Notes: generated by a model not told the origin, from the sequence alone. A stretch of 58,431 bases of DNA, filler included, from Jimgerdemannia flammicorona (GCA_003990765.1; 3 parts of 3 records of this genome joined end to end with filler, not necessarily neighbours in it); one strand, 5' to 3'; counted from the whole stretch's first letter, positions 5,186 through 52,989 are shown. Numbers and translations are program-made.

Positions 5186-5315
5186 GATGTTTTGTTGTTT
5201 AATCACATTTGAAACATTGTTTGGTGTTGTATTACTTGGTTTGCTAAATATATATGTGAGAATCCAGGGTTGGCGGTGCATTAGAGAAGTTGTAAATTAC
5301 AGGATGATGCACTTG

Positions 5316-6420: not shown

Positions 6421-7422
6421 TAAATAGATACAATTTATCCAGATAAGATTTAATTCAGATTTGTCATATGATAGATTCAAATTAACTCAGATTGATCTAG
6501 ATTAATCCAGATTACTTAAAATCTTTGGTAATATATATCATCCTTTCTTTATCTTTAGTGATATTATTCTTTTTTTGTTTTCTCTTTCTTTATTCTCTCT
6601 TTCTTATTCTTTTTTTCTTTATTCTCTTTAATGCTTCTTTTTATTTCTCTTATTACATTATGAATAAATAAATAGCAGTCCTTAATCATATATTAGTCTA
6701 CTCATTTTTTTATCTAATAATCATTAAAAAAAAAAATATTTGAGATGGGAATGTACTCTCTACTAATAATGTTAAATTCTTTCTCATATAGACAGCATAC
6801 AAACTACTCATTGAGAGCCAAAATAGTAATGGTAATAGTAATAATAATAATGATAGTGATGAGAATGAGAGAGAATTTTGACAGTAACTTATGATAATTC
6901 TTCAGACCTCAGAATTCATAGACCTCATAGCTATATATATAGTAGTCTTTTTAGAGCAGCTGATAGTAGATATAGATTGTCTTTTCACTACTATATTTAA
7001 ATTCCCACAGTATGACCAAGCTCATTTTGTACTGTTTCTCTTTTTCTTATAGTCTACAGCTCTATAACAAGATCTATTGACTTTATTTATAACATCTAGT
7101 CAAGATAAAGAAAGACTAGAGAATATTGTAAAGTATATCTTTAGTGGCTGAGCTGTTAAGTCAATGTATTGTATAGTAGAGATCTCAAAAAGATCAAAAG
7201 TAAGCCTTTATGAGCAATTTTGTACAACTCATTTATATATAACTCATCTGTATATAACTCATTCTCATGCTCTTTTCTAAATACTTACTCTATATTTTAT
7301 TTAACTTTATTTTTATATATTCTTCTCTAAAAACTCTCAAATAATACTTACATATAATCTATTCATATACTTAACTTGGCCCACTACACAGATCAAGACT
7401 CAGTTTTACTATAGAGGAGAAT

Positions 7423-9346
7423 TATAAGTACATAACCTCCAAGCCACTGAAATCACATGTGACCTCTGAACAAATCTGGAAACCATCTGCTTGATCATGA
7501 AGCTGAGTCAAACCAAAGTCACAGTATACAAAGCTGAGTCAATATGAAGTTACAGAACACAAGATTCACATAAATGGAATCTTACCAATTAGGACCAAAT
7601 ATATATATACTGAGCACTGAGATGCATCAAAACAGAGAACCAAAATAAATAACAACCACAACTCCCAACATACAAACATAACCACTGAGATCTACAACTG
7701 TATCTGTACTGATATTTGGAATGCTATTGTCAACCGAGCCATACCCCCTCTACCCCTCATGAATATCCATAGTCTAGCACCTCTTTACTTTATAAAAGCC
7801 TGATAGAATACTCTGAACATGCTTAACAAGGTCCACCAAATTGGACAAATCTCAAGCTACTATCAGATCAGCCGCCTCCTGGAAGATTTAGTTGAACATC
7901 ATCATGATACAGATATTACTCAGATGTCTCAACATCAGAAGCTCATCACCTGCAAACATCGAGAACTCTTCTATAAGTATAGCACTGTTATTCCCCACCT
8001 CCAAGTTACTATAGCTGAAATGGTTGCTATCCTGTCCTATTGCCAAATCGATGACATGATACAAGAACTCAACCACAAGTATCTTGAGTATATTAAAACC
8101 ACAGACAGAACCTTCCCACACCCCAATGATCATATCCTACAAATGCCCCAAGTTGGATATACCATGAAGGACATCTATAATATAATCCACTTCGATGAAG
8201 ATAAAGCAGAAGACAATGATCCCTCCAACACCAACATGACCCCAAGCCAAGGATCCCTGCCAACACTAATTATACCATCAATCTTGTCAATGAACTTATA
8301 ATAGTTCATAACCACATACAAGACTTATTGGGACAATGACTACTAGTATGAATACCAACCTGCATTCACCCCCAATTACTTTAACTAGAATGAAGAGACC
8401 GGAGAATACAACCTATACCTCCAGACAACCCTTGAGATTGAACCAACCTATCCACCACTCAAATATGAGCAATATGAACTATAGCCACCAGCTTACTATA
8501 ACCCCATAACTAATAGTACTGTAACCTATAGAAGACGAAGTTCCAATGTATTATTATCTCAGTGAACAAGGAGAAGTAATCCATGAACCACTCTTCCTAG
8601 ATGACTACTTCATCAGAGATGATACAATCAATGGTGATATCATCGAGAACTATCCAGACAGTGTCTAAACCTATAAATAGCCTAGCAGTCATAGTATAGT
8701 TAGATTAGCCTTGTACGACATGACTGTGAACTGACTCAGCAGTCAGACGATCTCTTAATATGTCAGATCACACTTGTACTATATGATTGCATTCTGACTC
8801 AGCAAAGCACTTAAGTGCTATATTCATATCTAGCATAGTCCAGATAGCCCCCCACTAGTATAAATACCCTCTCCCCCAGACCTCAGAATCTCAGACTTGA
8901 ACACTTGAACAATCCAAACACAACTCCTGAGCACTTCTCTACAAATATCTCTTCACATAACTACTCCTAATATAGCAATATCATGAATAGCAAATAAACC
9001 TATTTAATAACCCACAAAACTACTCTTAAGTAAATCTACTCCCCATTAGGTCCCACTCCTAACCCCATTACGAAATCTCCTAATTGGGTATTGTCTGCAG
9101 CAATATGCCAATTCAACTAAGCTGATCTTAGTTTTTTGAACTTCCTGAAATATGAAAAATCCTGAACATCCAGAACTAGTCTGAAAAAGGACTTTGGTTG
9201 AGACATCAACTCAATCTTGAAATCAATAAGCATAGAGGATGTACTCCATATGAAATTGATCTTGACCATAAGAAAACAGTCTTCCAGAATATCCAGAACT
9301 TCCCCAGAACTACATAATGGTTACCCTGAAAAACAACCCTCTTACA
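7423..9346 (+). repeat. 5' LTR of copy A; contains degenerate LTR-ORF 7678-8668
   Basis: Starts TATAAG (mutated TGTAAG) and ends CTTACA, followed by ACTTGGTAG (PBS-like TGG). TATAAA at 8859-8864, AATAAA at ~8993. Aligns with 17089-19031. Confidence 0.9.
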
Positions 9347-11372
9347 ACTTGGTAGTAGTAGTTTACAATCCAATTCTGCTTCAAGACACTTCCTCACCCT
9401 GCTACAAATCCCTCTGTGAATTCCTACAAGTTGGTATAAAGCCCAACCTCTGAACTGGAATTTATCTTGAACTATCTGACAATCTGGAGAGAATTGAACC
9501 TAACGTACAAGGACAATTTGACCTCCATACTTGCAACAAGTGAGACAAACTTCATTCAAAGAAAGAAGTACTCTGATTAAATCAGCAAATAGGCAAAACC
9601 CTATTCACTGAACTCCTTACACTACACCCAGCAAGTCAAGATGAAGAAGGTCTTATTGAAGCCTTCTTTACTCTTCTCAACAAGAGTTTTGTTAGCTCTA
9701 CAAATCTGAGTGACCTAGGACAACCAGCAGCAGTCTTTCTAGCCTTAGTTCCTCATGAAGCCCAAGCCTCTGTAGCCAAGTGGCTCAACTCTACTGACTT
9801 TTACCATACCAGGACCAAGACCGCATTATACTACCGATTCCAGAACAGCAAGACCTGCTATATTCTTAAAGAAGAAGCAAGAGAAACTCTTCATCAACTA
9901 CCTGACCCAAACCTAAAGCAGGCCCTGCTACAGCCCTACCTGAATCTGAAACCAATACTGAACCTGAACTTGACTTTGAATTAAGTCCATCTGAAATCAG
10001 ATATATAACTGATTTCATCTACTTCAATGCCAAGCAAACCCAATTACACAGGGACCAAACCGAAGAAGAGGAGGAGTATCTCAGTGAATTCAATCCCAGA
10101 TATACTACTGAAGGAGAAGTACCTCTATCAGGACAGAATACACCTACATAGCAACAAACAGTTATCTATCAAGCTCTCACTCCAGACCTACAACTACTAC
10201 TCCAGCAACTTATACAGACCCAAAGAACCCCATCACACTCTGTACTAGTACCTCAAGTAGTACCAGTAACACCACTACCAGCAGTCCAACTGCCTCCAGT
10301 AAACAATATGGCAAACCAACAGATTCTTGATCTTACAGCCCAAGTAGCTATAATGGCAGCAACCATTACTGCATTAGCTGAACAGACCCGACCCACCAAA
10401 AATCTGAGCCTACCTACCTTCAATGATACTGCACAAGAAGTCCAAAGCTTCATTAGTGTAGTTGATACCAACTTTGAAGCCAATCAATGGACCAATGAGT
10501 GAGTTGCTGACCACATTCTGACAAACAATCAAGACCACACTCTGGAACAACTCTTTGCTATCACTACAGCCTATGTTCACTGAGTTATTACATTCTTCCA
10601 AGGACCTGCCGAAGAATGGTGGTGAACCCTTCCTGAAAAACCCCTTACATGGGATACTTGACCTACAGTAGTTACTCAGAATGCAGCAAACAATACCTCA
10701 GGATATGGAGCCCATCCTGCAGCCCCTAGACTCAAACAACTCATGATTGCTCAATACTGCAGTGAAACCATGATTGCTGAATCTCGAGTAAAACTCTGCA
10801 ACCTCAAATTTGATATATATGGCAAAGAAGAATTTGAAACCTTCTGTACAAAACTCGAGTTACTCCTGAACACTGTTGGCCTAGGATATATCACCAATGA
10901 TGAAGCATGAAATGGTATAAGAGCAGACCATTTATTTGATGCCCTGCCTGAATGGCTTACTAGAAAAATCCGAGAACAAGGCCACCCAGTTGGTTGTGAT
11001 CACCAATAATGGTGCCTGACAAGAATCAAGACTATGGTCAAGTGAATCCTAACAGCTGGACCAATGCTGCCCCAAAGACAATTCAATAACAAGGAAAAGA
11101 CTTGGACCAAGAAAGAAGAACCCAAGCATGAAGCATCCCAAGCTCCCTCCATATCCACCTCTTGGACACCTAGAAATCATGAACCCACCCAGCCAAGCAC
11201 CTTCAAAAAACTCACTGAAGGCAAAAGGAATGAACTTCGAAGAAGTGGAGCATATTTCTATTGTCAAAAGACAGGACATATAGCCAGTGCCTGCCCTAAC
11301 TGAAAACCCCAAACAGCAATACAAGCAACTGTTACCACTCTGCACCACCTCAACAACCTGACCACCAGAACA

Positions 11373-11780
11373 CTGGACTTTGTCAAGTTAAGACAAACTG
11401 CTAAGACCCCAATCAAAGGAAGTCAAAAAGCAGCTGAATATGACCTGTATGCAGCCAAAGAAGCTACAGTTTCCAACCGAGAAGTCAAACAAGTCTATAT
11501 AGGAATCAGTATCCAAATTCCTGAAGGACATGTTGGAAGAATATACTGTCGCAGTAGCCTAGCATTAAAAGGACTCTCAGTAGAAAGAAGAGTTATCGAC
11601 AAAGATTACACAGGTGAAATTATTGTCCTTATCCGAAACCATAGTTGAACACCCTTCAAGATCCCTATAGGTTTCTGCATTGCCCAGATTCTATTTGAAA
11701 AAATCGAGTCAACTCTGATAGTCAAGGAAGTCCCTGAACTACTGCTTACTATCCAAGGATCCAAAGGATTTGGCTCATTG
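11373..11780 (+). pseudogene. Trimeric dUTPase domain inside the polyprotein, between nucleocapsid zinc knuckle and protease
   Basis: All five dUTPase motifs are readable in the Gag frame: AAEYDL, CRSSLA, VIDKDYTGEI, IAQILF, GSKGFGS. Also present in copy B at ~24985-25395 (minus). Confidence 0.92.
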
Positions 11781-14309
11781 AACAAGGCCCCAGCCCAACC
11801 TATCATGAGCAAAGAAGAACAATTCTACAAGAAGATCGAAGACAGATATATACCAAGTAGCTGATGCCCTCATGGCATTGGGATATACTCTTCCTGAATG
11901 ATTGATGATTGCTTCTCTTGTGTCAATGAACTGGCTCAAAGAAGAACCAACAGAAGGAAAAGTCCTATAACTGAAATCACCACCATTGGATCAGACAAAC
12001 TACTTATACTTAAAGCTTTTATCAACCGAGCACCTGTCAAGATTATGATAGACAGTGGTGCCTTAGGCAACTTCATCAATGAAGAGATAGCTAACAGACT
12101 CAAGGTCTTCACCTCTCCAGTACAGCAAACTCAAGCAGTTGCTACAGCTGATGAAACCTCACATGTTATTAGCAAAGAAGTCTGCAATCTACCCTTCTGA
12201 ATTGGCGACTACCGAGTATATGTTACCCTCCAAATCATACCACTTCCTGACAATGAAATCATCCTTGGGACTCCATGGTTAAAATAAGAGAACCCCATGA
12301 TTGATTGGATAAACCATTCTCTGACCATCAAGAAAGGATGCCACAACTTCAAACTACAAGACAAAAAGGACCCACTTAATTCTAGTGACTCTGGACCAAA
12401 GATCACCTACATTAATAAGCTATAACTCAAGAAATTGGCCAAGAAATGCCCTCTCTTTGCCATCACCATCCATCCATCCAAAGGAAAACCTGAGAACTCT
12501 GAAGAAGACTTTTTCAAAGTTGATAGCCATGTCAGACCACTACTCCAGAAATTCCGAGACATATTCCCAAAGAAACTCCCAAAAGGCCTACCTCCTAAAT
12601 GAGCAGTAGACCATACCATTAAGACTATCCCAGTACCAAACCAGCCTTCAAGTCAATCTACCACATGTCTCCAAGAGAAATCGATGCACTCAAGAAAGAA
12701 ATTGATGAACTCCTAGAACAAGGATTCATTAGACCCAGTGTATCACCTTATAGTGCACCAGTCCTATTTATTGTCAAGAAAGGAGGAGACCTGTGAATAT
12801 GTATTGACTACCATGATCTCAATGAACAGACCATCAAGAACTATTGCCCACTACTAAGAATCGATGAAATATTTGATAGACTTACCAACCCACAATTCAT
12901 GAGCTCCTTTGACCTGCGAAATGGTTACTGACAAATTGCCATGAAAGAAGAAGACATCTACAAGACAGCCTTCTGAACTTGCTATGGACATTTCGAGTTC
13001 CTGGTTATGCCCTTTGGCTTAACTAATACTTCTGTAACCTTCCAGACCCTAATGAATACTATCCTGCACTCATACCTGGACAAATTCATGGTTGTCTACA
13101 TTGATGACATCCTAGTCTTCAGCAAAACCCTGGAGGAATATCTTGAACACCTTGAACTAGTACTACTGAAACTCCGAGAAAACCAACTCTTTGCAAAACT
13201 CAGCAAGTGCGAATTTCTCTTGAAAGAAATTCAATTCCTTGGACACATTGTCACTCCAAATAGAATCAAAGTAGACCCCAGCAAAATCTCTCAAATCAAA
13301 GATTGGCCCAGATCCAAGAAGCTGAAAGACCTCCAGTCATTCCTGAGATTAGCAAACTATTACAGGCAATTTGTTGCCAACTTTGCTAAAATTGCTACTG
13401 CTCTCACCCAAATGACCAAGCATAGCAAGAAACAAGAACAACTCTGGACCATGAAATAAGAGAAAGACTTCAACAATCTTATAATCTGGGGACCTGAGCA
13501 AGACACCACCTTTCAAGCACTAAAGGATGCCTTGATAACCACTCCAGTACTTCAAGCAGCAAATCCTGCCCTACCATATGAAGTCACTACTAATGCCTCT
13601 GACCTAGCCCTTGGAGCAGTACTCATGCAAGAAGGACACCCTGTGGCCTGTCACTCCCACAAGTTCAATGATGCTGAAATTAACTATATAATCTATGAGA
13701 AGGAAATGCTAGCCATCATAGACACTCTGATCAAATGGTGACCATATCTAGAAGGAGTATACTTTACTATATTGACTGACCACAAGTTATTAGTCAACAT
13801 CAAGACACAGGCTACCCTTTCTCGAAAGCAAGTCAGATGGATGAAAGTCCTCACCAACTTTGACTATGAAATCCAGTATCACCCTGGTAAGGAAAATATT
13901 GTTACCAATGCAATCTCCAGACCACCCATTGAAGAAGTTATCCAAACTCTCACCTTGATTACCAATACTATCATGGAGCAAATTATTGCAGTATATACTG
14001 ATGATAAGGAAGCTCAAGCACTCTGAGAAATCCTGAATAGGATGATGTTGACAAATGTACACAGTATCACCAATATCAACTGAAGGACAATGCTATCTAC
14101 TACAAGAACAGACTGTATGTTCCAAACAACCAAGACTTCTGAAGGACTATCCTATTTGAATGTCATGATGCCCCTATAGCTGGATATTTAGGATTCGATA
14201 AATGTTATGAAGTTATCTCCTGAAACTTCTATTGGCCCCATATGGCAGATCAGCTCAAAACCTACATCACTTCCTGTGATGCCTACCAATGAAATAAGTC
14301 CTCAATACT

Positions 14310-15520
14310 TTTTTTTTTTTTTTTTTTTTTTTTAATGGACTCAAGTCCCGTGGATTTTATTGGAAGGGAACCTAGACTATATAGGCCAAAACCCTCCCCC
14401 ACCACCCACCGAACAATATCCCCCTATTAACCTAGGCTACGAAACTGTCCAGCAGTCCCACCGCTCCAGCTATGCCTGTCGAACACCGGCTACGTCGACC
14501 CCAACGACATAGACTAGACTTGTCTGCTCACTAGGGCTGGATCATCGTTTACACGTGAGAGCACACCTACACGTCAGATCTAGCAGCGCCGGGACTGAAT
14601 TAAGAATAGCCCCCCGAACCCCAAAAGAAAGCCCGAGGCAAAGAAAAAAACCCCCCAACCAACCAACAGAGAGCAAAGTAGATTCAAAGCGGGTGAGTAA
14701 AGGACTTATATGCAGCACCTTCCTCAAAGGACTTACACATGGGCTAGGGCCCGAAGAGACTCCACTCCCACTCCCTGAGCCTGCGGGCCTCGATCACGTT
14801 GCCGTGTCAGCTCCCAGTTCCAGTCGGGTACTGCCAAATGAGGAAGGTTCCACTCCCTAAGCCTGTGGGCCTCGATCACGTTGCCATGTCAGCTCCCAGT
14901 TCCAGTTGGGTACAGCCAGGATGCTGGCCCCTGCACCACCCCACCCCCCATCAGCCAATCAAAAGGCCCCACCGAAATATTGTCTGCCCCAACCCCGATG
15001 ACCGCCCCCAGCCTGGCACCCCACTGGTTCACCATAATCGCCCTTCCTCCTATCTGTGATGGCCATCTCCCCTCCCAACCCGACATCACCCAAAAAGCAG
15101 TCACCTACGCCAGAACTGCGCTCGCCGGGAAGCTCGCCAAAGCCAGAGGGCCCCACTACAGGCACCGAGGACCTGCAGGTAACCTACACTGAGCACTTGA
15201 CGCCCAAGGTCGGCCGACTCCCTACGTAGCCCGAGATACACCGAGACAGCACCTTGTTGACAACGGCAAAAGGAAGAAGGCGCCGCACCAAAATGGATAC
15301 ACTCCAGACGCAGCCAAAGACACCAGAAACCGCGAAAAAATGGAGAAGACACCGATCTGACACCGATAAAGGGGCAACTCATCACCATTGCCCTCCTTCC
15401 ACCATGCCCATGCAGGCACAGCAAACCAACCTGAGGTAGAGGGGGTAATAATAGGGGAAAGGGGACTCGGAAGGTCGCCTACCAAACCTTGTGACTGGTA
15501 AGGTAGCGGAGAAAGGAGCG
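14310..15520 (-). mobile_element. 1.2-kb poly(A)-tailed non-LTR retroelement fragment inserted in the integrase of copy A
   Basis: 16-bp TSD ATAAGTCCTCAATACT at 14294-14309 and 15521-15536; T-run at the left end; AATAAA on the minus strand before the tail; GC/CpG-richer than its host. Confidence 0.92.
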
Positions 15521-17070
15521 ATAAGTCCTCAATACTAGCAAAACCCAGCTTACTTCACCCTATCTCAGTACCATCTGCAAATTGGGAATAAATCTCTATA
15601 GACTTTATTGTACAACTACTCCAAACCAAGAACAGGAAAGATGCAATTGTTGTCTTTGTAGATTATCTAAGCAAACAAGCCCACTTTGTACCTACTACCA
15701 CTACTGTAACAGCACCAAACATAGCCACACTCTTATTTGACAATATCTTCCACTATCATGGTCTTCCTAAGATCATTGTTAGCAACTGAGACCTGAAATT
15801 CACCAGTCATTTTTGAAAAGCCCTCCATGCACACCTTGGAACAAAACTTGCACTATTCACAGTCTTTCACTCTGAAACTGATGGCCAAACTGAAAGAATG
15901 AACCGAACTCTAGAATAAATGCTAAGGAACTATGTTTCCTATAGATAAGATAATTAGCATGAACACCTGACTGCAGTTGAGTTTGCTTATAATAACAGCA
16001 AGCAAGCCTCTCTCGGAATGATCCTATTCTTTGCCAACATTGGACAAAACCCAAACACCCCTTTGACACTTATCTGAACCACTGAAGAACTCTCCACAGT
16101 TGAAGCTATTGAAGAATTCCTACTCTGAATGTGCAATCTAAGCCAGATTGCAATTGAAAATTTATCATGAGCTCAAGAACAACAGTCACAGTATGTTAAC
16201 CAACACTGCTGAGAAGAAATCTTTGATATTGGAGAAAAAGTTCTACTGGACATCAGAGGATACTGAGTTGACAACCTCAAGTACAGACCATCTACAAAGC
16301 TGAACAGCAAGTTCATTGGACTATTTGAAGTCATCGCACAAGTCTCTTCTACCTCCTACAAACTGGTGCTACCAGATACTATTAAGATTCACCCAGTCTT
16401 TAATGTCCAATGTCTCAAGTGATATAATGAGAATGATGACAAGCTATTTCCAAACCAGACTACCCAACCATCTGTACCTGTCATTATTAATAACCACAAG
16501 GAATACAAAGTTGAACAAATCCTCAATAAATGTGGCCACAAGAACTACCCTGAGTACCTTGTGAAATAGAAAGGTTATCCAATCCATGATGCAATCTGGG
16601 AACCTAAGACCAATCTCTAGAATACTACTGACCTAGTTCAGGAATATGATTCCTTGAACAACTAAAACCAAATACTCAGTACCTATCTGTACATACTATA
16701 TATTATCCTCCCGAACACTATAATTATCAAAAGAATCAAGAACTTAGCAAAACAAGACAAGAATACTAACCCTCTAGAAAAAATAGCAAAACTGAAAGCC
16801 AGTCTATTCTCCCCATACCACTGTAGGGAAACAAGGCATAGACATTAAGAAGATTCCATAGAGGAAATTCTCCAGCAGTGAATGATGTCAGAATCACTTC
16901 CAGCATACAGCATTGAACATATGACCCTTTAATGTATGAATCCAACACATTAGGCAACTGTACTATAAGCATGCCACTTTCTGAAAAAATGGACTTTACT
17001 GGACTTTTGATCTCCCAAATGGTGTAACAACACTAGAACAAAATTAGAAGGCCCCGACGAAGATGTCAAA

Positions 17071-17088
17071 AGCTAAGAAGGGGAGAGT
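17071..17088 (+). other. Polypurine tract of copy A
   Basis: AGCTAAGAAGGGGAGAGT directly precedes TGTAAG of the 3' LTR; mirrored in copy B at 20991-21008. Confidence 0.85.
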
Positions 17089-19031
17089 TGTAAGTGCACA
17101 ACCTCCAAGCCACTGAAATCACATATCACTCTCTGAACAAGCCACTGAAATCACACATGACCTTTGAACAAATCTGGAAACCACCTGCTTGATCATGAAG
17201 CTGAGTCAAATCGAAGTCATAGTGTACAAAGCTGAGTCAATATGAAGTCACAGAACACAAGATTCATATAAATGAAATCTTATCAATCAGGACCAAATGT
17301 ATATATACTGAGCACTGAGATGCGTCGAAACAGAGAACCAAAACAAATAACAACTACAACTCCCAACACACAAACATGACCACTGAGATCTACAACTATA
17401 TCTGTGCTGACATTTGGAATACCATTGTCAACCGAGCCACACCCCCTCTACCCCTCATGAATATCCATAGCCTAGCACCCCTTTACTTCGTGGAAGCCTG
17501 ATGGAATGCTCTGAACATGCTTAACAAGGCCCATCAGATTGGACAAATCTCAAGCTACTATCAGATCAGCTGCCTCCTGGAAGATATGGTTGAACATCAT
17601 CATGATATAGATATTACTCAGATGTCTCAACACTAGAAGCTCATTACTTGCAAACATTAAGAACTCTTCTATGAGTATAGCACCATTATTTTCTGCCTCC
17701 AAGTTACTACAGCTGAAATGGTTGCTACCCTGTCCTATGGCCAAATTGACAACATGATACAAGAACTCAACCACAAGTACCTTGAGTATATCAAAACCAC
17801 AGAGAGAACCTTCCTACACCCCAATGATCATATCCTACAAATGCCCCAAGTTAGATATGCCATGAAGAATATCTACGATATAATCTACTTCGATGAAGAT
17901 GAAGCAGAAGACAATGATCCCTCTGACACCAACATGACCCCAAGCCAAGGATCCCTGCCAATACTAATTATACTACCAACCTTGCCAATGAACTTACAAT
18001 AGTTCATAACCACATATGAGACTTATTGAGACAATTACCACTGGCATGAATACCAATCCACATTTACCTCTAATTACTTTAACTATAATGAAAAGACCAG
18101 AGAACACAATCTGTACCTCCAGACAACTCTTGAGATTGAACCAACCACTCCATAACCTGAATATGAGCAATATAAACTACAGCCACCAGCTTACTACAAC
18201 CCCACAACTCATAGTGCTGTAACCTATAGAAGATGAAGTTCCAATGTATTATTATCTCAGTGAACAAGGAGAAATAATCCACGAACCACTCTTCCTAGAT
18301 GACTACTTTATCAGAGATGATGCAATCGATGGTGATGTCATTGAGAACTATCCAGACAGCACCTAAACCTATAAATAGCCTAGCAGTCATAGTATAGTTA
18401 GATTAGCCTTATACAATATGACTGTGAACTGACTCAGCAGTCAGACAATCTCTTGACATGTCAGATCACACTTGTACTATGTGACTACATTCTGACTCAG
18501 CAAAGCACTTAAGTGCTATATCCATATCTAGCATAGTCCAGATAGCCCCCCACTAGTATAAATACCCCCTCCCCCAGACCTCAGAATCTCAGACTTGAAT
18601 ACTTGAACAATCCAAATATAACTCCTGAGCACTTCCCCACAAATATCTCTTTACACAACTACTCCTAGTATAGCAATATCATAAATAGCGAATAAACCTA
18701 TTTAATAACCCACAAAACTACTCTTAAGTAAATCTGCTCTCTGTTAGGTCCCACTCCTAACCCCATCATGAAATCTCCTAATTGGGTATTGTTTGCAGTG
18801 ATATGCCAATTCAACTAAGCTGATCTTAGTTTCTTAAACTTCCTGAAATACAGAAAATCCTGAACATTCAGAACTAGTCTGAAAAAGGACTTTGGTTGAG
18901 ATATCAACCCAATCTTGAAATCAATAAGCATAGAGGATGTATTCCATATGAAATTGATCTTGATCATAAGAAAACGATCTTCCAGAATATCCAGAACTTC
19001 CAGAAAATTCTTCCAGAACTACATAATGGTA
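17089..19031 (+). repeat. 3' LTR of copy A; contains degenerate LTR-ORF 17376-18366
   Basis: Starts TGTAAGTGCACA and is collinear with 7423-9320; lacks the last ~25 nt present in the 5' LTR. Confidence 0.9.
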
Positions 19032-19415
19032 AGAATTCAAAGTTATCTAAGTTTGACTATATCTAGTATCTGATCAAATAGAGAAGTTTGAGAGTAAGTT
19101 ATTCAGTATAAGTAATATCAGTATCATTAAGGTTTGGGAGTCTACATTTAAATTAGAGCTAATTATTCTCAATTAAAGAGCCCATTGGCCTACTGGAGTA
19201 TTCAATAATAAAGAAAACTATATCATTATTAACAAATATGAAAAGTTGTTATAGTAGTAGTAAGAAATCTCTATAGTAATAAGCTTTATTACTATATTAA
19301 TAAGATTTATAAGGATTGTATCAAATACTAGATAGCAGATGAGAGGGAGTATAAAAAGCAAGGAGGGGGAGTTTGGACAGGAATTAAATATACTATAATA
19401 TTAGTAAAGAGTGGG

Positions 19416-19515
19416 NNNNNNNNNNNNNNNNNNNNNNNNNNNNNNNNNNNNNNNNNNNNTTAATTAATTAANNNNNNNNNNNNNNNNNNNNNNNNNNNNN
19501 NNNNNNNNNNNNNNN
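19416..19515. other. Artificial assembly spacer (N-run with TTAATTAATTAA six-frame stop linker)
   Basis: 100 nt with a central TTAATTAATTAA; identical design at 38926-39025. Confidence 0.95.
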
Positions 19516-19649
19516 CCTGGCATGGTCAAGCTGCTGGACAATAGCTAGCCTAGGTTAATGGGGGGGCAGTGCTTGGTGGGTGGTGGGGGAGGGTTTTGGC
19601 CTATATAGTCTAGGTTCCCTTCCAATAAAAATCCGCGGGACATGAGTCC

Positions 19650-19687
<38 letters not shown>
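19516..19687 (+). mobile_element. 3' end and poly(A) tail of the same non-LTR family, abutting the 3' LTR of copy B
   Basis: GGGAGGGTTTTGGCCTATATAGTCTAGGTTCCCTTCCAATAAAA is the reverse complement of ~14354-14398; A-run at 19652-19687. Confidence 0.9.
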
Positions 19688-19689
<2 letters not shown>

Positions 19690-22600
19690 TGAAGTAGTCA
19701 TCTAGAAAGAGTGGTTCTTGAATTACTTCTCTCTGTTTACTTAGGTAATAATATATTGGAATTATGTCACTATCCTACAGGATGATATCATCTGTTTCAT
19801 ATGCTGGATATGGAGTTGGCAGGTAAAGGGGAGGTACATCATCTTCACTTTCATCAGATTCACTATCTGCATATCTTCTATAGGTAACAGTGCTATAAGT
19901 TGTGAAGTTATAGTATGCTAGTAGCTATTGCTTATTTCATTCATACTTAAGAGGTAGGGTTGTTGGTTTGATCTTGAGGGTTGTCTGGAGATATAGCTTA
20001 TATTCTCTAGTCTCTTCATCATAGTTAAAGTAATCAGATATAATTGCAGATTGATACTTATACTAATAGTCAATATCCAATAGGTCTCATAGGTGATTAT
20101 GAACTATTGTAAGTTTATTGACAAGTTGGTGGATGATCAAGGTTGGCAGGGATCCTTGACTGGAGGTCATATTGGTATCAGAGAGATCATTATCTTCTGC
20201 TTTATCATTATTGAACTGGATTATATCTTAGATATCCTTTATAGTATATCTAACTTAGGATATTTGCAGGATATAGTCATCAGGATATAGAAAGGTTCTG
20301 TCTGTGGTTTAAACATACTAAATATACTTGTGTTGAGTTCTTATACCATATCATCAATTTGGCCATAAGATAGGGTAGCAACCATTTCAGCAGTAGTAAC
20401 TCAGAGAGGGGTAATAAAGATACTATATTTATAGAAGAGTTCTTGGTATTTGTAGGCAATAAGTTTCTGGTGTTGTGATATCTGGATAATATCTATATTA
20501 TAGTGGTGTTCAACTATATCTTCTAAAAGGTGGCTGATCTGATAGTAGCTTAAGATTTGTCTGATTTGGTAGACTTAAGTATGTTCAGAGTATTCTATCG
20601 GACTTCCACAAAGTAGAGAGATACCAGGCTATGGATATTCATGAGAGATAGAGAAGGTGTGGCTCAGTTGACAATGGTATTCCAAATATCAATATATATG
20701 TAGTTGTAGATCTTAGTGGTCATAGTTGTATATATGTTTAAGAGTTGTGATTATTTGTTTAGTTTATTGTGGTTTTCTGTTTTGATGCATCTGAGTACTC
20801 AATATATATGTATTCAGTTCTAATTAGTAAGATTCTGTTTATATAAATCTTATATTCCATGACTTTAAGTTGACTCAGATTTGTGCTCTGTGACATCAGT
20901 TTGACTCAGCTTTATGATCTTGTATATAATTTCTGAATTTATTCAGAGGGTGACATGTGATTTTAGTGGCTTAGTGGTTGTGCACTTATAACTCTCCCCT
21001 TTTTAGCTTTTGACATCCTCATTGAGGTCTTCTAATTTTGGTCTAGTGTTGTTACACTGTTTGGATGATCAAAAGTCTAGTAATGTCTATTTTCCTGAGA
21101 AAGTGGTATGCTTGTAGTATAGTTGCCTAATATATTAGATTTATATATTAAAGAGTTATATATTCAATACCATATACTGGAGGTGATTCTGACATCATTT
21201 ACTGCTGAAGAATTTCCTCTAAGGAATCTTCTTAAATATCTATGCCTTATTTCCCACCAGTAGTATGGAGAGAATAGGCTTTCTTTCAGTTTTGTTATTT
21301 TTCTAGAGGGTCAGTATTCTTTCATCTTGACTTGCAGAGTTCTTGATTTCATTCATTATAATTATAAGAGTACTTAATATTCAAGAAGAGTAATATATAT
21401 TATAGGCTAATAGATACTGGAGTATTCAGTTTTCAGTTATTCAAAGAATCATATTCATGAATAAGATCAGTAGCATTCTGGAGATTAGTCTTGGATTTCC
21501 ATATTATATCATGGATTTGATAATCTTTCTATTTGACAAAGTACTCTAGATAGTCCTTGTGACCATATTTATTAAGAATTTGCTCAACTTTGTATTCTTC
21601 TTAGTCATTAATAATGATAGATACAGGTAGTTCTGTAGTTTAGTTTAGGAATAGCTCATCATCATTTTCGTTATATTGCTTAAGATGTTGTATATTAAAG
21701 ACTAGGTGAATCTTAATAGCACCAATTTGTAAGAAGTTGGAGAGACTTGTGTGATGACTTCAAATAGTCTAATAAATTTGATATTTAGCTTATAGATGGT
21801 CTATATTTGAGGTTGTCAACTCAGTATCCTGATGTCTAGTAGAACTTTATCTCTAATATCAAAAGTTTCTTCTTAGTAGTGTTGGTTGATATACTATAAC
21901 TGTTGTTCTTATGCTCAGAATAAATTCTCAATTGCAATCTGACTTAGATTCTATATTCAGAGTAAGAATTCTTCAACAGCTTCAACTATAGAGGATTCAT
22001 CAGTAGTTCTGATAAGTATCAGAGAGATATTTGGGGTTTGTTCTATGTTAGTAAAGAATAGAGTCATTCCAAGAGAGACTTCCTTACTATTATTGTAGGT
22101 AAACTTGACTATGGTAAAGAATTTATACCAATTATCTTATCTATAGAAAATATAGTTCCCTAGTATTTGCTCCAGAGTTTGGTTCATTCTTTCAGTTTAA
22201 CTATCAGTTTTAGAGTAAAAGGCTATAGATAGTATATATTTTATTCTAAGGTATACATGTAGGGCTTTTCAAAAGTGGCTGGTGAACTTCAGATCTCAGT
22301 TACTAACAATAATCTTGGGAAGACCATGATAGTGAAAAATATTGTCAAACAAGAGTTTAATGATGTCTAGTACTGTTACAGTAGTATTATTTGGTATAAA
22401 ATATATTTGTTTGCTGGGATAGTCTATGAAGACAATAATTGTATCTTTCCCATTCTTTGTTTAGAAAGTTGTTTAATAAAATCCATAGAGATTTGTTCCC
22501 AATTAGCAGATGATACTTGGATAGAGTAGAGTAGGCCAAGTTTGCTAGAGTTAAGGACTTGTTATATTGACAGGTATTATAGGAAGTTACATTGATCTTT

Positions 22601-25600
22601 AGTTGATCTGCCATATAGGGCCAATAAAAGTTTTAGGAGATAACTTTGTAGCATTTGTCAAATCCTAAATGTCTGACTGTAGGAGCATTATAATATTGAA
22701 AAAGGATAGTCCTTCAGAGATCTCAATTATTAAAACCCTACAATCTATCTTTATAGTAGATAGTATTGTCCTTTAGTTGGTATTGATGATACTAGTTATG
22801 CTTGTTAGTATCATTACTACTCAGAATTTCTCTGAGAGATTGAGCTTCTTTATCATCAGCATATACTGTGATGATTTGTTCCATGATAGAGTTGGTAACT
22901 AAGGTGGGAGTTTGAATAACTTCTTTGATTAGTGGTCTGGAAATTATATCAGTAATAATATTCTTCTTATCAAGGTGATACTGGATTTTATAGTCAAAGT
23001 TGGTGAGGACTTTCATCCATCTGACTTGAGTAGTCTGGGTCTTGATATTGACTAAGGATTTGTGGTCAGTCAATACAGTAAAGTGTGCTCCTTCTAGATA
23101 TGATTGCTATTTAATTAGGATATCTATGATAGGATAGCTAATATTTCCTTCTTATGGGTTGTATAGATGATTTTTCCATCATTGAACTTGCAAGAATAAT
23201 AGGCCACAGAGTGTCCTTCTTATATGAGTACTACTCCAAGAGCTAGATCAGAGGAATCAGTAGTAACTTTATGGGTAGATAGGGTTTGCCACTTAGAGTA
23301 GTTATCAAGACATCTTTCAGTACTTGAAAGGCTGTATCTTATTCAAGTCTCCAATTTGTAAGATTTTGAAGTATTTTTCTTACTTTGCTGTCCAGGGCTA
23401 TCCTTCTTTCTTACTATACTTGGTCATTTGGATAAGGGCAGTAGCAATCTTGGCAAAGTTTGCAACAAATTACTAGTAACAGTTAACTAGTCTTAGGAAT
23501 GACTAGAGGTCCTTCAACTTCTTGGATCTGGATTATTCCTTGATTGTAGAGATTTTGCTAAAGTCTATTTTGATTTTATTTGGAGTAATAATATATCTAA
23601 GGAATTAAATTACCTTCAGGAGGAATTCACATTTGAAGAGTTGACTTTCTCAGAGTTTCAGTAATACTAGTTCAAGATGTTTAAGATATTTCTCCAGGGT
23701 TTTGCTGAAGACTAGAATGTTATCAATATAGATAATAATAAATTTATCTAGATATAGGTATAGGATGGTATTCATCTATATCTAGAAGGTTACAAGAGCT
23801 TTAGTTAAGCCAAAAGAAATAACCAAGGACTCAAAATGTCAATAGTGAGTTTGGAAGGCTGTTTTGTAGATGTCTTCTTCTTTTATAGCAATTTGCTAGT
23901 AACTATTTCACAGGTCAAAAGAGCTCATAAATTGTAGATTGGTAAGCCTATTAAATATTTTATTGATTTGGAGTAGTGGGCAGTAGTTTTTGGTAGTCTA
24001 TTCATTGAGGTTGCAGTATTCATAAGTCTCCTTCTTTTATAACAATAAAGAGGACTGGTCACTATATAGTGATACACTAGATCTAAAAATCCTTATTCTA
24101 GAAGTTTATTAATATCTTTCTTAAGTATATTGATTTCTCTCAGAGACATATAGTAGATTGACTTGAAGGCAGGCTTAGCATCTGGGATGGTCTTGATAGC
24201 ATGATCTATTACTTTTTTAGGTAGTAGGCCTTTCAATAGTTTCTTTGGAAATATGTCTTGGAATTTCTAAAGTAAGGATCTGATATGGCTGTCAACTTTA
24301 GAAAAGTCTTCTTTGAAGTTTTCAGGTTCTCCTTTAGATAGATAGATAGAGATAGCAAAGAAAGGGCATTTCTTGGTCAATTTCTTGAGTTGTGGCTTGT
24401 TAATTGAGTGATCTTTGGTCTAGAGTTATTAGAACTGAGTTGGTCTTTTTTACCTTGCAGTTTGAAATTGGGATACCCTTCTTGATAGTTAGAGAATGAT
24501 TTACCCAGTTGATCATAGAGTTCTCTTATTTTAACCATGGGGTCCCAACATATACTTAGTAGTCACCAATTCAGAAGAGCAAGTTGCAGACTTCCTTGCT
24601 AATAATATGTGAGGTTCTATCAGCTGTGGCAACTGCTTGAGTTGATTATACTGGAGAGGTTAGGACCTTGAGTCTGTTGGCTATTTCTTCATTAATGAAG
24701 TTGCCTGAGACACCATTGTCTATCATAATCTTAACAGGTGCTCTATTGACAAAAGCTTAGAGTATAAGCAGTTTGTCTGATTAAATAGTAGTGATTTCAG
24801 TCATAGGAGCTTTCCTTCTATTAGTTCTCCTTTGGACCAGTTTATTGATACAAGAGAAGTAATTATCGATCATTCAAGAAGAGTACATTTCAATACCATG
24901 AGAGCATCAGTCACTTGGTACAAATTCATCTTTGATTTTTTTGCAGAATTGTTCTTCCTTATTTATAGTAGATTGTGCTTGAGTCTTGTTTGATAAGCCA
25001 AACTCTTTGGATCCTCAGATGGTCGACAGTAGTCCAGAGACTTCTTTGACTGTCAGAGTTAATTCAATTTTCTTGAATAGAATTTGAGTAATGCAAAAAC
25101 TAATAGGAATCTTAAATAGTATCTAACTATAGTTTAGATGAGGACAATGATTTTGCCTGTATAATCTTTATCAATAATTTCTCCTTCTACTGAGAGTCCT
25201 TTTAATACTAGGCTACTGTGATAGTATATTCTATCAATATGTCTTTCAGAGATTTGAATGCTGATTTCTGTATAGACTTGCTTGACTTCATGGTTAGAAA
25301 CAGTAGCTTCTTCAGCTATATATAGGTTATATTAAGTGTTTTTGGACTTTCTTTAGTTGGGGCCTTAGCAGTTGGCCTTAACTTGACAAAGTCCAAAATC
25401 TTGGTGGTCAGATTTTTGAGGTAGTGCAGAGTGTTAACAGTTGCTCATATTACTGTTTGGGGTTTTCAGTTGGGACAGACATTGGTTAAATGTCCTGTAT
25501 TTTGACAATAGAAGTATACTCCACTTCTTCAGAGTTCATTTCTCTCTCCTTTAGTGAGTTTTTTGAAGGTACTTGGCTGGGTGAGTTCAGGATTTCTGAG

Positions 25601-28600: not shown

Positions 28601-29599
28601 GTAAAATATAGTCATTGGGGTGTGGAAAGGTTCTGTCTGTATTTTAAATATACTTAATATACTTGTAGTTGAGATCTTGTACCATATTGTCAATTTGGCT
28701 ATAGGACAGAGTAGTAACCCTTTCAGTGATAGTAACTTAGAGATAGAGAATAAAGGTACTATACTCATAGAAGAGTTCTCTGTATTTGCAGACAATGAGT
28801 TTCTGGTGTTGAGACATCTGGGTAATATCTATATTATGGTAGTGTTTGACCATATCTTCTAGAAGATGGCTGATCTGATAGTAGCTTGAGATTTGATCAA
28901 TTCAGTAGACTTCACTGAGTATGTTCAGGGCATTCCATTAGGCTTCCACAAAGTAGAGAGGTACCAGGCTGTTGTTATTCATGAGGGGTAGGAGAGGTGT
29001 GGCTCAGTTGACAATGGCATTCCAAATATCAGTACAGATATAGTTGTAGATCTTAGTGGTCATAGTTGTGTATATATTCAAGAGTTGTAATTGTTTGTTT
29101 AGTTTGTTGTGGTTTTCAGTTTCAATATATCTGAATGCTTGATATATATACATTTAGTTCTGATTTGTAAGGTTTTATTGGTATAAATTTTGTGTTCTAT
29201 GACTTTGAGTTGACTCAGCTTTGTACTCTATGACTAGTACTCTACAAACCCAACCCAATTAATCTGAAACCCTACCCATAAAACAGCCAACTCAGAATTA
29301 GATGTTACCTATCTTAACTCAACCCAGAATTATATGTTACCTGTCTTTAAGCTGACCTGGAATTATACATCACCCATCTTTAACCTGACCTGGAAAGATA
29401 CATTACCTATCTTTAATCCAATCTGGAATTAAATATAACCCATCTTTAACCCAATCTGAAAATGGATATCACCTGACTCATTATTTACTCTTAACCCAAA
29501 CCTGAACCTGACCCCTGAACCTGATCCTGAACCTGACCCCTGAACCTGACCCTGAACCTGATCCTCTGAACTCTGCTCTAAAAAAATGATTCAGATAAT

Positions 29600-38222: not shown

Positions 38223-38925
38223 GAAGAAGAAAATGATGATGAGCGACTATACAAAGTAGGTTGAATTTCCTTTTATTACACATGCCCAAAATCTTCTCTA
38301 AATCTCACCTCAATCTATATATCATCTCCAACGGCGAAAGTGTGACCCAGAGGTGGCCGGTCCTCCTTGACAAAATTAGTGGTTGGAATCGAGTACTAAT
38401 ATAATGGAACTACGACCACAAATTGCATCGTTACCTGTAGATCGTTGCTATATACATGTTGAACCTTGTCCATTCCAGCTCTTTGATTTTAAATGCACTA
38501 CGTTTAATTCTTCCACATTTTATGCCACCACGACATGCTGACATTTTTGCGTTCCGTATAACGCAAAATATATTTTTTCAGCTGAAGTTTATATTCACTT
38601 CACACCACTCTATAAAGCCAGTTGGCAATTTGACGTAGTGATATTCATTGAATATAAACACCGAACAAAGCACAGCGAGTGCACGAATGCAAAGAGCTAA
38701 AGCTGTAGGACGCGTTTCGTTCTCGTCATCCTCACCAAATAATTTATCGTTTTGAGAGAGATTGTTGGACCTACTTGAGAAGCTACTCAGGCAGAATACC
38801 AACTGATTACATTGAAATTTATTGGTAACCATTACTCCAACGTTTTCTATTATGATCACCAAATCGATCTGTCTATCTACACCTGTCCCGTCTGTGAACA
38901 TTTGTTTTTTTTTTTTTTTTTTTTT

Positions 38926-39025
38926 NNNNNNNNNNNNNNNNNNNNNNNNNNNNNNNNNNNNNNNNNNNNTTAATTAATTAANNNNNNNNNNNNNNNNNNN
39001 NNNNNNNNNNNNNNNNNNNNNNNNN
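38926..39025. other. Artificial assembly spacer
   Basis: 100-nt N-run with a central TTAATTAATTAA. Confidence 0.95.
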
Positions 39026-52750: not shown

Positions 52751-52989
52751 ATAGATAAGATAATATAAGAGAAGGCCCAAATATGTCTTTCTCTAGTAAC
52801 ATTCAGGTAATACAAACTTCAGATAATACTTCAAGTAATGTTTTTAGTAAAAAGGTACTATTAATATAGTAAGCAATGAGTATTCTGAAGAGCATATACA
52901 CCAGTAACATTCAGGTGATACAAGACTCAGACAATACTTTTTACTACATTTTTGGTGTCTGACGACTATTGACATGGATGGCAACAATC

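Follow-up and report, generated by a model that had tools for sequence, protein, structure and literature searches.

A Ty3/gypsy chromovirus lineage with a dUTPase in its Gag-Pol and a selected gene inside its long terminal repeats

Retrotransposon long terminal repeats (LTRs) are treated as noncoding promoter and terminator modules and are masked by annotation pipelines. The element at positions 7423-19031 of the window (the whole 58,431-nt stretch of DNA analyzed here, filler included) raises the question of whether an LTR can itself carry a gene, and of how closely such an element resembles a retrovirus. A preliminary description read the locus as a chromovirus laid out like a complex retrovirus, with a dUTPase between nucleocapsid and protease and an LTR-encoded gene, a combination for which it knew of no described family. 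In our judgment the window quite likely holds dead copies of one Ty3/gypsy chromovirus lineage whose ancestor had a single Gag-Pol and a selected LTR gene, probably in U3. That ancestor would have made one Gag-Pol polyprotein comprising a long atypical Gag, a CCHC knuckle, a cellular-type trimeric dUTPase, a C-H-C-C linker, protease, reverse transcriptase, RNase H, integrase, and chromodomain; its second gene, of about 340-365 codons, would have lain wholly within the LTR. The selected gene borne by the LTR is the main finding and is unusual, while the dUTPase arrangement is already known.

Copy 1, its decay, and its Gag-Pol

Copy 1 is an 11.6-kb Ty3/gypsy chromovirus, and its extent as first described is exact because an AGAAT repeat abuts both element ends. 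The hallmarks of Ty3/gypsy elements are present, namely LTRs in direct orientation, a short target-site duplication, and a polypurine tract before the 3′ LTR. The LTRs are about 1.9 kb long, and the pair is 91.1% identical over 1864 nt (7440-9303 vs 17138-19001, BLAST). The 5′ LTR starts TATAAGT, where the other LTRs start TGTAAGT, and where a primer-binding site would adjoin this LTR the decayed sequence shows a TGG at 9318-9320, inside the LTR or at its end. The features of copy 1 are listed below; several were placed with the help of P0094, an intact 1964-aa single-ORF polyprotein from a public 28.7-kb contig (ENA).

7418-7422 and 19032-19036, unstranded: target-site duplication AGAAT (5 bp, direct; direct sequence reading)
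7423-9323, plus strand: 5′ LTR (five-LTR alignment and boundary reading)
9577-10313, plus strand: Gag N-terminal extension, without a Pfam match; conservation is weak even against the closest intact relative
10314-11045, plus strand: Gag core, collinear with P0094 residues 211-450 (BLASTP 30% over 842 aa, E 2e-131)
11256-11300, plus strand: CCHC zinc knuckle (nucleocapsid), aligned with the P0094 knuckle (Pfam zf-CCHC E 9.6e-4; 19.6 bits, slightly below the Pfam curated cutoff of 20.8)
11400-11777, plus strand: dUTPase (Pfam PF00692 E 2.8e-27, profile positions 3-127 of 129)
11865-11921, plus strand: C-x-H...C-x2-C motif in the dUTPase-protease linker, aligned with P0094, without a family match
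11988-12338, plus strand: aspartic protease with DSG (Pfam RVP_2 E 2.7e-9)
12806-13252, plus strand: reverse transcriptase (Pfam RVT_1 E 1.5e-27)
13487-13861, plus strand: RNase H (Pfam RT_RNaseH E 3e-28)
14310-15522, minus strand: poly(A)-tailed retroposon inserted into the integrase gene, with a 14-nt duplication AAGTCCTCAATACT at its flanks
15547-16650, plus strand: integrase core, SH3, and chromodomain (BLASTP 51% over 372 aa to P0094, E 1e-116)
16231-16425, plus strand: Tf2-type SH3 (Pfam SH3_Tf2-1 E 1.9e-14)
16504-16650, plus strand: chromodomain at the integrase C-terminus, after SH3_Tf2-1 (Pfam Chromo E 9.8e-10)
17076-17088, plus strand: polypurine tract AAGAAGGGGAGAG, followed by T and adjoining the 3′ LTR (direct reading)
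17089-19031, plus strand: 3′ LTR (BLAST, five-LTR alignment, direct reading)

Two further relatives of copy 1 lie in the window.

19516-29235, minus strand: copy 2, an older element (BLAST, indel comparison)
39026-40905, minus strand: third LTR, solo or truncated, its 3′ end meeting a run of N (BLAST, five-LTR alignment)

Copy 2 consists of an internal part at 20998-27502, which is 81% identical to that of copy 1, a 5′ LTR at 27503-29235, and a 3′ LTR at about 19700-20997 that is split by the same retroposon family as is found in copy 1. The polypurine tract AAGAAGGGGAGAG is present in copy 2 as well. Its GC content is 33% and its CpG o/e is 0.02-0.04; the third LTR is the least decayed, with a CpG o/e of 0.65. 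CpG decay, stops, and indels have disabled both full copies. Decay after insertion would have proceeded mainly by CpG-to-TpG transitions, with the poly(A) retroposon also inserting into the copies. The retroposon at 14310-15522, whose poly-T run is on the plus strand, is a later insertion and does not belong to the element; it is missing from copy 2. The host genes in the neighborhood code for a GH9 glycosidase and a Mat89Bb-like product, with GT..AG introns of 86-128 nt.

The domain order Gag-NC-dUTPase-PR-RT-RH-IN-chromodomain was borne out by Pfam matches in sequence and by alignment to P0094, which also located the integrase core, Pfam rve giving nothing at E 0.01 in the decayed copy 1. 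Judged by its C-terminal integrase chromodomain the element is a chromovirus, and the Pol order PR-RT-RNase H-IN is that of Ty3/gypsy elements (Metaviridae). Knuckle, dUTPase, and protease share one frame in copy 1, interrupted solely by point-mutation stops. The single frame at 9906-12599 holds 15 in-frame stops (11 of them TGA) and no frameshift; one in-frame TGA, at 11646-11648, falls in the dUTPase. Frameshifts occur near 9907-9988, in the Gag N-terminal extension, and near 12634, where a 1-nt deletion specific to copy 1 shifts the frame right before RT. Copy 2 retains the dUTPase (piece at 25137-25331, E 1.1e-9) but has lost single nucleotides at three points in the stretch from knuckle to dUTPase. 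The claim that the dUTPase follows the knuckle and precedes the protease in frame therefore stands for copy 1, but "directly" is approximate, as about 33 residues separate knuckle and dUTPase; about 70 residues, including the C-H-C-C motif, separate dUTPase and protease.

The five motifs of trimeric dUTPases are recognizable in order in copy 1 when it is aligned with P0003, P0004, and P0094. Several catalytic motif residues have been altered by transitions, as expected because the copy is dead. Matches of the domain to PDB chains named as cellular or DNA-virus dUTPases reach E 8e-21 to 1e-18, compared with only 1e-10 for a chain named "POL POLYPROTEIN". By these scores the enzyme resembles cellular dUTPases more than the retroviral one, in keeping with the suggestion that it is independent of retroviral dUTPases. 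Its place in the polyprotein would have it packaged beside nucleocapsid, where, by analogy with betaretroviruses, it would lower dUTP during reverse transcription.

A gene inside the LTR

The LTRs carry an ORF of about 365 codons, which column-wise translation of the alignment places in the same frame in 5/5 LTRs with no frameshifting insertion.

39514-40611, minus strand: LTR gene in the third LTR, ATG at 40611, TAA at 39514-39516, 365 codons
7678-8668, plus strand: decayed LTR ORF in the copy 1 5′ LTR, first codon ATA, 7 internal stops
17376-18366, plus strand: LTR ORF remnant in the copy 1 3′ LTR, ATG retained, 6 internal stops
8672-8998, plus strand: predicted promoter and polyadenylation signals 3′ of the ORF, TATAAATA at 8672 and 8859, AATAAA at 8993

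ORF-bearing LTRs of about 1.9 kb are thus present as first described, with the frame nearly intact only in the third LTR, the one that retains most CpG. There, 345 codons are open (39514-40551, minus strand) and the one TGA, at codon 20, is shared with copy 2; because it is common to both, the true start may be the conserved Met at codon 28. In the two full copies the ORF is broken by 6-13 internal stops, and the window contains no fully intact copy. A tblastn search with P0005 still matched the decayed ORF at 75-82% identity. A frameshifting deletion of 107 nt is also common to the ORFs of the two copy 1 LTRs. Copy 1 may have transposed with a broken ORF, in which case the ORF can be dispensed with or was provided in trans; otherwise the deletion dates from the last replication cycle of that copy.

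Selection on the frame was assessed with a control internal to the elements. Changes that separate the paired LTRs of a single element supplied the neutral expectation, with which differences fixed between elements were contrasted. Fixed differences between copies 1 and 2 fall 18/5/43 on the three codon positions, a three-base period with position 2 lowest and position 3 highest. Synonymous and nonsynonymous changes number 41:25 among these fixed differences versus 86:179 from LTR to LTR within elements (Fisher OR 3.4, p=1.6e-5). Copy 1 compared with the third LTR gave 61 synonymous and 38 nonsynonymous differences (p 7e-7). The excess persists when only non-CpG sites are counted (39:18 vs 69:139, p 3e-6), and neither shifted frame of the ORF has a synonymous excess. 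The LTR gene is protein-coding and was under purifying selection while the lineage was active, which upholds the proposal of a real gene inside the LTR.

The encoded protein is very acidic (net charge -44) and Tyr/Pro-rich; its N-terminal third is predicted to be helical, and its C-terminus is acidic-hydrophobic. No membrane segment was found (maximal 19-residue hydropathy 0.96), no Pfam family matched, and the structure model, at a pLDDT of 33, is unusable. A search of 1.84 billion representative proteins returned only two homologous fragments, P0006 and P0007, both of LTR type. P0006, from a 998-bp public contig, is 67% identical and has 247 open codons with the same end point, and it aligns in long invariant blocks with in-frame gaps. 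The protein looks like neither an envelope nor an enzyme. Our best guess, a weak one drawn from composition, is that the product may be a trans-acting accessory factor such as an activator or a host-factor adaptor.

Competing readings of the LTR frame

A frame that is broken in both full copies, and for which there is no family, fold, or expression evidence, might not be a gene but a chance open stretch, or a part of U3 conserved as regulatory DNA or RNA, and U3 regions do contain conserved regulatory blocks. Chance does not account for the length of the frame because 0/5000 first-order Markov resamples of the third LTR reach 345 codons, the longest being 239. Regulatory constraint is disfavored because it gives no frame-specific synonymous excess, whereas the period and the excess confined to this frame, at non-CpG sites as well, are what the LTRs display. 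We hold it highly improbable that the frame is not a gene. A gene could also have arrived as a passenger, a host fragment transduced into U3 whose signal of selection comes from host-gene history or recombination. LTR retrotransposons do take up host sequence, and the protein has no similarity to retroelement proteins. However, the substitutions tested date from the divergence of element lineages, later than any capture, and yet are mostly synonymous; beyond the two LTR-type fragments the protein search contained no host-like homologue, and the window has no second copy outside LTRs. A passenger origin seems to us very unlikely.

The place of the gene within the LTR bears on how it would be expressed. 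A transcript starting at a TATA-like run about 75 nt 5′ of the ATG (7600, 17300, 29150) would put the ORF in R or the 5′ leader, where it would head the genomic RNA as its first cistron or form an independent unit in every LTR, solo LTRs included. A TATATATA-like run is retained 5′ of the ATG in the LTR copies, and the AATAAA 3′ of the ORF could terminate such a transcript. Set against this, two canonical TATAAATA boxes and one AATAAA lie downstream of the ORF stop codon at positions conserved in four LTRs; the LTR-covering contigs of spliced RNA from runs X1 and X2 (39026-39358, summed depths 753 and 3251) fall downstream of the second box; and an R region longer than 1.2 kb would be exceptional. 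We regard placement in R or the leader as unlikely. The positions of TATAAATA and AATAAA suggest a putative U3/R/U5 division of the LTR, and the gene is probably in U3 because the TATA boxes are downstream of it. By virtue of that position, a gene borne by U3 would occupy the 3′ terminus of the genomic RNA, and every cycle would duplicate it into the two LTRs; its translation would depend on a transcript that is either subgenomic or internal to the LTR. The contigs of these two small RNA runs contain no transcript or splice joint of the ORF, so the subgenomic accessory expression implied by the term "complex retrovirus" was not seen there; nor was a peptide of the ORF seen. It is a tentative possibility that an accessory gene in U3 was expressed by way of a transcript of one of these two kinds and that the acidic protein acted in trans on element expression or host silencing.

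Relatives and comparison with known systems

P0094 has the same layout, with a long Gag lacking a Pfam capsid match, CCHC, dUTPase, C-H-C-C linker, PR, RT, RH, IN, SH3, and chromodomain. It is 30% identical to copy 1 over Gag-NC-dUTPase-linker-PR (E 2e-131), 47% over RT-RH, and 51% over IN-chromodomain, and because it is intact the layout is a working one. A second intact public polyprotein, P0003, has the same order with canonical motifs (CCHC 327-343, dUTPase 494-621, PR 626-743), and in it a motif resembling C-H-C-C precedes the dUTPase. The preliminary description took the element to be fungal, whereas among named sequences its RT is closest to those of plants and green algae (38-48% identity), and a tree of 97 RT-RH rows gave no well-supported small clade for the copy 1 row. 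Among described elements, PosPlaTy3-3 of Postia placenta is a chromovirus whose Pol begins with a dUTPase, ahead of the protease; the likeness is one of description rather than sequence (Novikova et al. 2010, PMC2864245). The available part of that paper also cites dUTPase-bearing fungal chromoviruses from P. chrysosporium and Tuber (Tmt1), regards such domains as apparently gained on separate occasions, and gives PosPlaTy3-3 an "add. ORF" while making no mention of an LTR ORF in it. With P0094 and P0003 as precedents, and a dUTPase ahead of the protease in PosPlaTy3-3, the CCHC-dUTPase-protease order is not new, and the statement that no described family has these traits was wrong for the dUTPase. 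The protein library, which includes gene calls of contigs such as that of P0094, yielded no homologue of the LTR protein alongside P0094 or P0003, and the LTR gene and dUTPase layout are known together from this window alone.

In two other groups of LTR retrotransposons the extra genes lie in other positions. The bdelloid rotifer elements Juno, Vesta, and TelKA are Ty3/gypsy-like and combine a dUTPase with additional ORFs of varied origin, but in the available text their dUTPase lies between PR and RT, they have no chromodomain, and the extra ORF3 follows pol and precedes the 3′ LTR, outside the LTR itself (Rodriguez et al. 2017, PMC5408684); copy 1 has no ORF between pol and the 3′ LTR. Plant LTR retrotransposons carry extra, often orphan, lineage-conserved ORFs beside gag-pol, which differ in occupying the space that separates an LTR from gag or pol from an LTR, in either orientation, and a term search of that review turned up none located within an LTR (Vicient and Casacuberta 2020, PMC7264820). 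A selected LTR gene means that two gene copies are written per transposition and that solo LTRs left by recombination could still encode the protein. It also indicates that an envelope is no prerequisite for an LTR retrotransposon to evolve 3′ accessory genes of the retroviral kind. Letting the two LTRs of an element calibrate neutral change, against which divergence between elements is then read, is a test that can be reused.

In MMTV, the U3 region of the LTR contains an ORF, sag. The element analyzed here is like the betaretroviruses MMTV and MPMV in having its dUTPase between nucleocapsid and protease, and like MMTV in having an ORF in the LTR. The betaretroviral arrangement is as the preliminary description gave it, the enzyme being made as an NC-dUTPase fusion according to the available part of the source (PMC4531489). 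The differences are substantial. This element has no env and no gag/pro/pol frameshifting, its ancestral frame being single; its integrase bears a chromodomain and its dUTPase is cellular-like; and its LTR protein has neither a membrane segment nor any retroviral similarity. With no env, one frame from Gag to protease, and a relative encoded by a single 1964-aa ORF, "complex retrovirus" is not an apt label, and the betaretrovirus likeness is one of analogy, not membership. Retroelements are known to have captured cellular dUTPases repeatedly, and the present lineage, which has intact relatives, is a further case, with the enzyme in a betaretrovirus-like position. If the gene does lie in U3 and act in trans, it would be the first LTR-encoded regulatory protein in an LTR retrotransposon outside retroviruses, each solo LTR would be a potential gene, and in function the protein would correspond to MMTV sag or to the 3′ genes of foamy viruses.

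Structure of the element and decay of its copies

The Ty3/gypsy chromovirus on the forward strand (copy 1) has exactly the coordinates 7423-19031 that the preliminary description assigned to it, since the ends of both LTRs and a 5-bp AGAAT at each flank could be read directly. Comparing the region with the window by BLAST gave direct repeats at 7440-9303 and 17138-19001 with 91.1% identity over 1864 nt. The reverse strand carries a third LTR and an older relative (copy 2) that matches copy 1 at 5224 of 6439 aligned bases (81.1%).

Structural features of the LTR family
7418-7422 and 19032-19036: target duplication AGAAT (5 bp), both flanks of copy 1
7423-9323 (+): 5′ LTR of copy 1, from base-by-base reading
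17076-17088: purine tract AAGAAGGGGAGAG, before the 3′ LTR of copy 1
17089-19031 (+): 3′ LTR of copy 1, from base-by-base reading
27503-29235 (-): 5′ LTR of copy 2
20998-27502 (-): internal part of copy 2
~19700 (-): early end of the 3′ LTR of copy 2
39026-40905 (-): third LTR
14310-15522, within 14296-15536: poly(A)-tailed retroposon of 1.2 kb in the integrase of copy 1, poly-T on the + strand, with a 14-nt target duplication AAGTCCTCAATACT

Two other readings of copy 1 were set aside. The target duplication accounts for at least part of a stretch upstream of the 5′ LTR that resembles a polypurine tract, and alignment gave no support to a tandem array. An isolated 108-nt piece at 35077-35182 (-), with 84% identity to the first LTR bases, is a remnant of another copy. 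The 3′ LTR of copy 1 (17100-17140) and, near 40830-40870, the third LTR both contain a 32-nt tandem duplication (CAAGCCACTGAAATCACA...) close to the LTR start. The 5′ LTR of copy 1 lacks it, and hence either one LTR of copy 1 was altered after insertion or the LTRs recombined. Rfam had no match anywhere in the window.

Copies 1 and 2 are both dead. Copy 1 carries about 200 stops in each forward frame, and one coding frame is kept over 9906-12599, where 11 of the 15 stops are TGA. The only frameshift before the reverse transcriptase (RT) in the coding run from 9906 is a 1-nt deletion near 12634, through which copy 2 reads. Observed/expected CpG is 0.65 in the third LTR, 0.13-0.17 in copy 1, 0.02-0.04 in copy 2 and 1.03 in the neighboring GH9 gene; the copies differ in age, and their decay was mostly by CpG transitions. 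Classical RIP was considered as the mode of decay, and the pattern does not match it: the stops in copies of this LTR family are mostly TGA and TpA/ApT is 0.8-1.0. Methylation-driven CpG decay of transposons fits the CpG ratios and the TGA stops better than RIP does. The retroposon in the integrase of copy 1 is missing from copy 2. Its family (GC 54%, poly-T on the + strand) has made three insertions into this LTR family, the other two copies lying at 19516-19700 and ~38850-38925 and abutting paired 44-N runs at 19416-19515 and 38926-39025.

The window also holds unrelated features. A gene related to Mat89Bb (Asunder/Integrator subunit 13 family) with short introns lies at 747-2358, its exons matching Pfam Mat89Bb; the Integrator complex is not known from most fungi, which makes a fungal host more doubtful. 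GC skew is very strong (+0.4 to +0.58) over 52000-58431, where RVT_1 also matches at 56360-56806; this is a separate, unrelated retroelement.

A gene carried by the LTRs

The preliminary description reported a 164-codon ORF in the LTR (7807-8301). The presence of an ORF holds, but its extent does not, as that ORF is a fragment of a frame of ~365 codons. Translating the five-LTR alignment column by column recovered this one frame in all five LTRs, with frameshifting insertions in none. Internal stops number 7 and 6 in the 5′ and 3′ LTRs of copy 1, 7 and 13 in those of copy 2 (the 3′ LTR being truncated) and 1 in the third LTR, where 345 codons are open (39514-40551). In 5000 first-order Markov resamples of the third LTR, open frames never reached 345 codons, the maximum being 239. 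A 107-nt deletion that shifts the frame of the ORF is common to the two LTRs of copy 1; either copy 1 moved with the gene already broken or the deletion dates from its last cycle.

An element inserts with two identical LTRs, so the differences that later separate them are neutral and served as the control. Sites at which both LTRs agree within copy 1 and within copy 2 while the elements differ form the fixed class, which arose earlier, in the replicating lineage.

Substitutions in the LTR frame, by class
Fixed, copy 1 vs copy 2: 66 sites, codon positions 18/5/43; 41 synonymous, 25 nonsynonymous; Fisher OR 3.4, p 1.6e-5
Fixed, copy 1 vs third LTR: 61 synonymous, 38 nonsynonymous; p 7e-7 against the within-element class
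Within elements, LTR to LTR (neutral control): 265 sites; 86 synonymous, 179 nonsynonymous
Fixed, copy 1 vs copy 2, non-CpG sites only: 39 synonymous, 18 nonsynonymous; p 3e-6
Within elements, non-CpG sites only (neutral control): 69 synonymous, 139 nonsynonymous

Parallel CpG decay as the cause of the synonymous excess is excluded by its persistence at non-CpG sites. In both shifted frames, synonymous changes in the fixed class are if anything fewer. The excess is thus specific to the frame and is not confined to CpG sites, and the LTR frame was therefore under purifying selection as a protein. The claim that the ~1.9-kb LTRs carry an ORF is borne out by the single frame in all five LTRs and by this comparison of fixed with within-element changes. 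The equivalent codon-position counts for gag-pol of copies 1 and 2 gave only a modest third-position excess, diluted by decay. A 134-codon open frame antisense to the LTR gene, at 40033-40437 (+), is most likely a by-product of codon bias in the sense frame.

Relatives of the LTR protein are few. A HMMER search without a profile against 1.84 billion representatives returned four proteins at E<=0.001, two of them genuine homologues: P0006 (247 aa, 67% identity, on a 998-bp contig) and P0007 (128 aa, 93% identity). The other two, P0008 and P0009, were rejected because they match only through their own internal repeats. P0006 ends at the same C-terminal residue as the window protein; long blocks in it are invariant, and its two gaps are in frame. 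Codon 20 is Arg in P0007 and TGA in the third LTR and copy 2, and codon 28 is Met in all five LTRs, which leaves the start uncertain. The protein has a net charge of -44, 8% Tyr and 9% Pro, with no hydrophobic segment. It matched no Pfam family, had no useful look-alike in the protein atlas and showed no similarity to gag-pol or to the intact public polyproteins P0094 and P0003. Its predicted structure was unusable (pLDDT 33). Neither metagenome contigs nor viral contigs, when scanned, yielded a relative of the LTR protein or of P0094.

In four LTRs, the stop codon is followed by a TATAAATA box that overlaps the stop region, by another such box ~190 nt farther on, and by AATAAA ~120 nt beyond this second box. 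If these are the promoter and the poly(A) signal, the ORF would fill U3; motif positions give copy 1 a putative division into U3 (~7423-8890), R (~8890-9015) and U5 (to 9323). An ORF in U3 would lie downstream of the polypurine tract, as the 3′-terminal gene on the genomic RNA. A further conserved TATA-like run precedes the ATG by ~75 nt and makes an LTR-internal transcript possible.

Transcripts were sought in sequencing runs. Two runs of one organism, X1 and X2, are RNA, since their contigs skip the eight GT..AG introns (86-128 nt) of the GH9 glycoside hydrolase gene, which lies at 45542-48929 in one reading and at 46653-49543 in another. A soil metatranscriptome, X3, covered that gene only, with four near-identical contigs. 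X1 and X2 RNA covers 39026-39358, downstream of the second TATA box (summed depths 753 and 3251), which agrees with a start site there but is no proof of it, and one 407-nt X2 contig spans 39287-39575. Over 39692-40357, most of the LTR ORF, neither run gave an RNA contig at 90% likeness, and with two runs this small absence is not demonstrable. Neither a transcript nor a peptide of the LTR ORF was seen. A further run, X6, contains many LTR fragments at 90-95%.

The dUTPase within gag-pol and its relatives

Pfam was run on ORF pieces and on read-through translations with X at stops.

Pfam domains of copy 1, all (+)
11256-11300: zf-CCHC knuckle of the nucleocapsid (NC)
11400-11777: dUTPase, E 2.8e-27
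11988-12338: protease (PR)
between protease and chromodomain, in this order: RT, RNase H (RH), Tf2-type SH3
16504-16650: chromodomain, E 9.8e-10

The integrase core was recovered by alignment with an intact relative (51% over 372 aa). A dUTPase in frame in two copies had been proposed. In copy 1, knuckle, dUTPase and protease do share a frame, interrupted by single TGA codons, but the copy 2 dUTPase (E 1.1e-9) lies in a knuckle-dUTPase stretch with three 1-nt deletions, and the shared frame is therefore strictly true of copy 1 alone. We infer that the ancestor had NC-dUTPase-PR in a single frame.

The same order exists in other proteins. Searching longer proteins with NC-dUTPase-PR gave two polyproteins among 2177 candidates, P0003 and P0004. 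The intact P0003 (1767 aa) has capsid, CCHC (327-343), dUTPase (494-621), PR (626-743), RT, RH, integrase, SH3 and chromodomain; in P0004 the dUTPase is downstream of PR. When the RT-RH part was searched for longer relatives, one of the 120 best carried PF00692, the intact P0094 (1964 aa), which has CCHC at 516-533, dUTPase at 566-693, PR at 826-955 and the rest ordered as in copy 1. Collinearity between P0094 and copy 1 extends from the Gag core as far as the beginning of RT (30% over 842 aa, E 2e-131). The NC-to-protease linker (11865-11921) contains a C-x-H-x(9-12)-C-x2-C motif, which follows the dUTPase in P0094 (residues ~745-770) as in the window element and precedes it in P0003 (433-455); P0078, a relative with no dUTPase, is without it. 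The motif may be a second zinc-binding module, and its placement is a hint of different entry points for the dUTPase.

Whether the dUTPase was captured once or several times is left open by the RT-RH tree (97 rows: the window row and 96 of 122 hits, the 26 without a 400-aa HSP left out). As drawn, the tree does not unite the three NC-dUTPase-PR elements in one clade, and no well-supported branch forbids such a clade. Their dUTPase identities, all 36-48%, give no grouping. Plants and green algae supply the best named RT relatives (38-48% identity), alongside a single Penicillium row. That the element is fungal, as the preliminary description has it, is a guess. Against solved structures, the window dUTPase matches chains named as cellular or DNA-virus dUTPases at E 8e-21 to 1e-18 and a chain named POL POLYPROTEIN at E 1e-10. 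These stronger nonretroviral matches fit a capture separate from the retroviral one and favor the proposal that the betaretrovirus-like order, which is real, was acquired independently.

Comparison with known systems divides the proposal that no described family combines these traits. The dUTPase layout is a lineage trait that was already known, as P0094, P0003 and PosPlaTy3-3 attest. The LTR-borne gene is undescribed for LTR retrotransposons within the literature searched: searches of open-access papers found no ORF inside a retrotransposon LTR, nor did a term search of a review of plant aORFs (PMC7264820). Novikova et al. 2010 place the dUTPases of Postia placenta chromoviruses at the Pol amino-terminus (PosPlaTy3-3, compared here by description), at the carboxyl-terminus or in the PR-RT gap, and suggest independent acquisitions (PMC2864245); Rodriguez et al. 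2017 describe rotifer elements with a dUTPase between PR and RT (PMC5408684). The betaretroviral NC-dUTPase fusion is as the preliminary description stated it (PMC4531489), and the label "complex retrovirus" is best taken as an analogy. The closest likeness is to P0094, which shares with copy 1 a Gag that Pfam does not recognize and the C-x-H...C-x2-C motif between dUTPase and protease.
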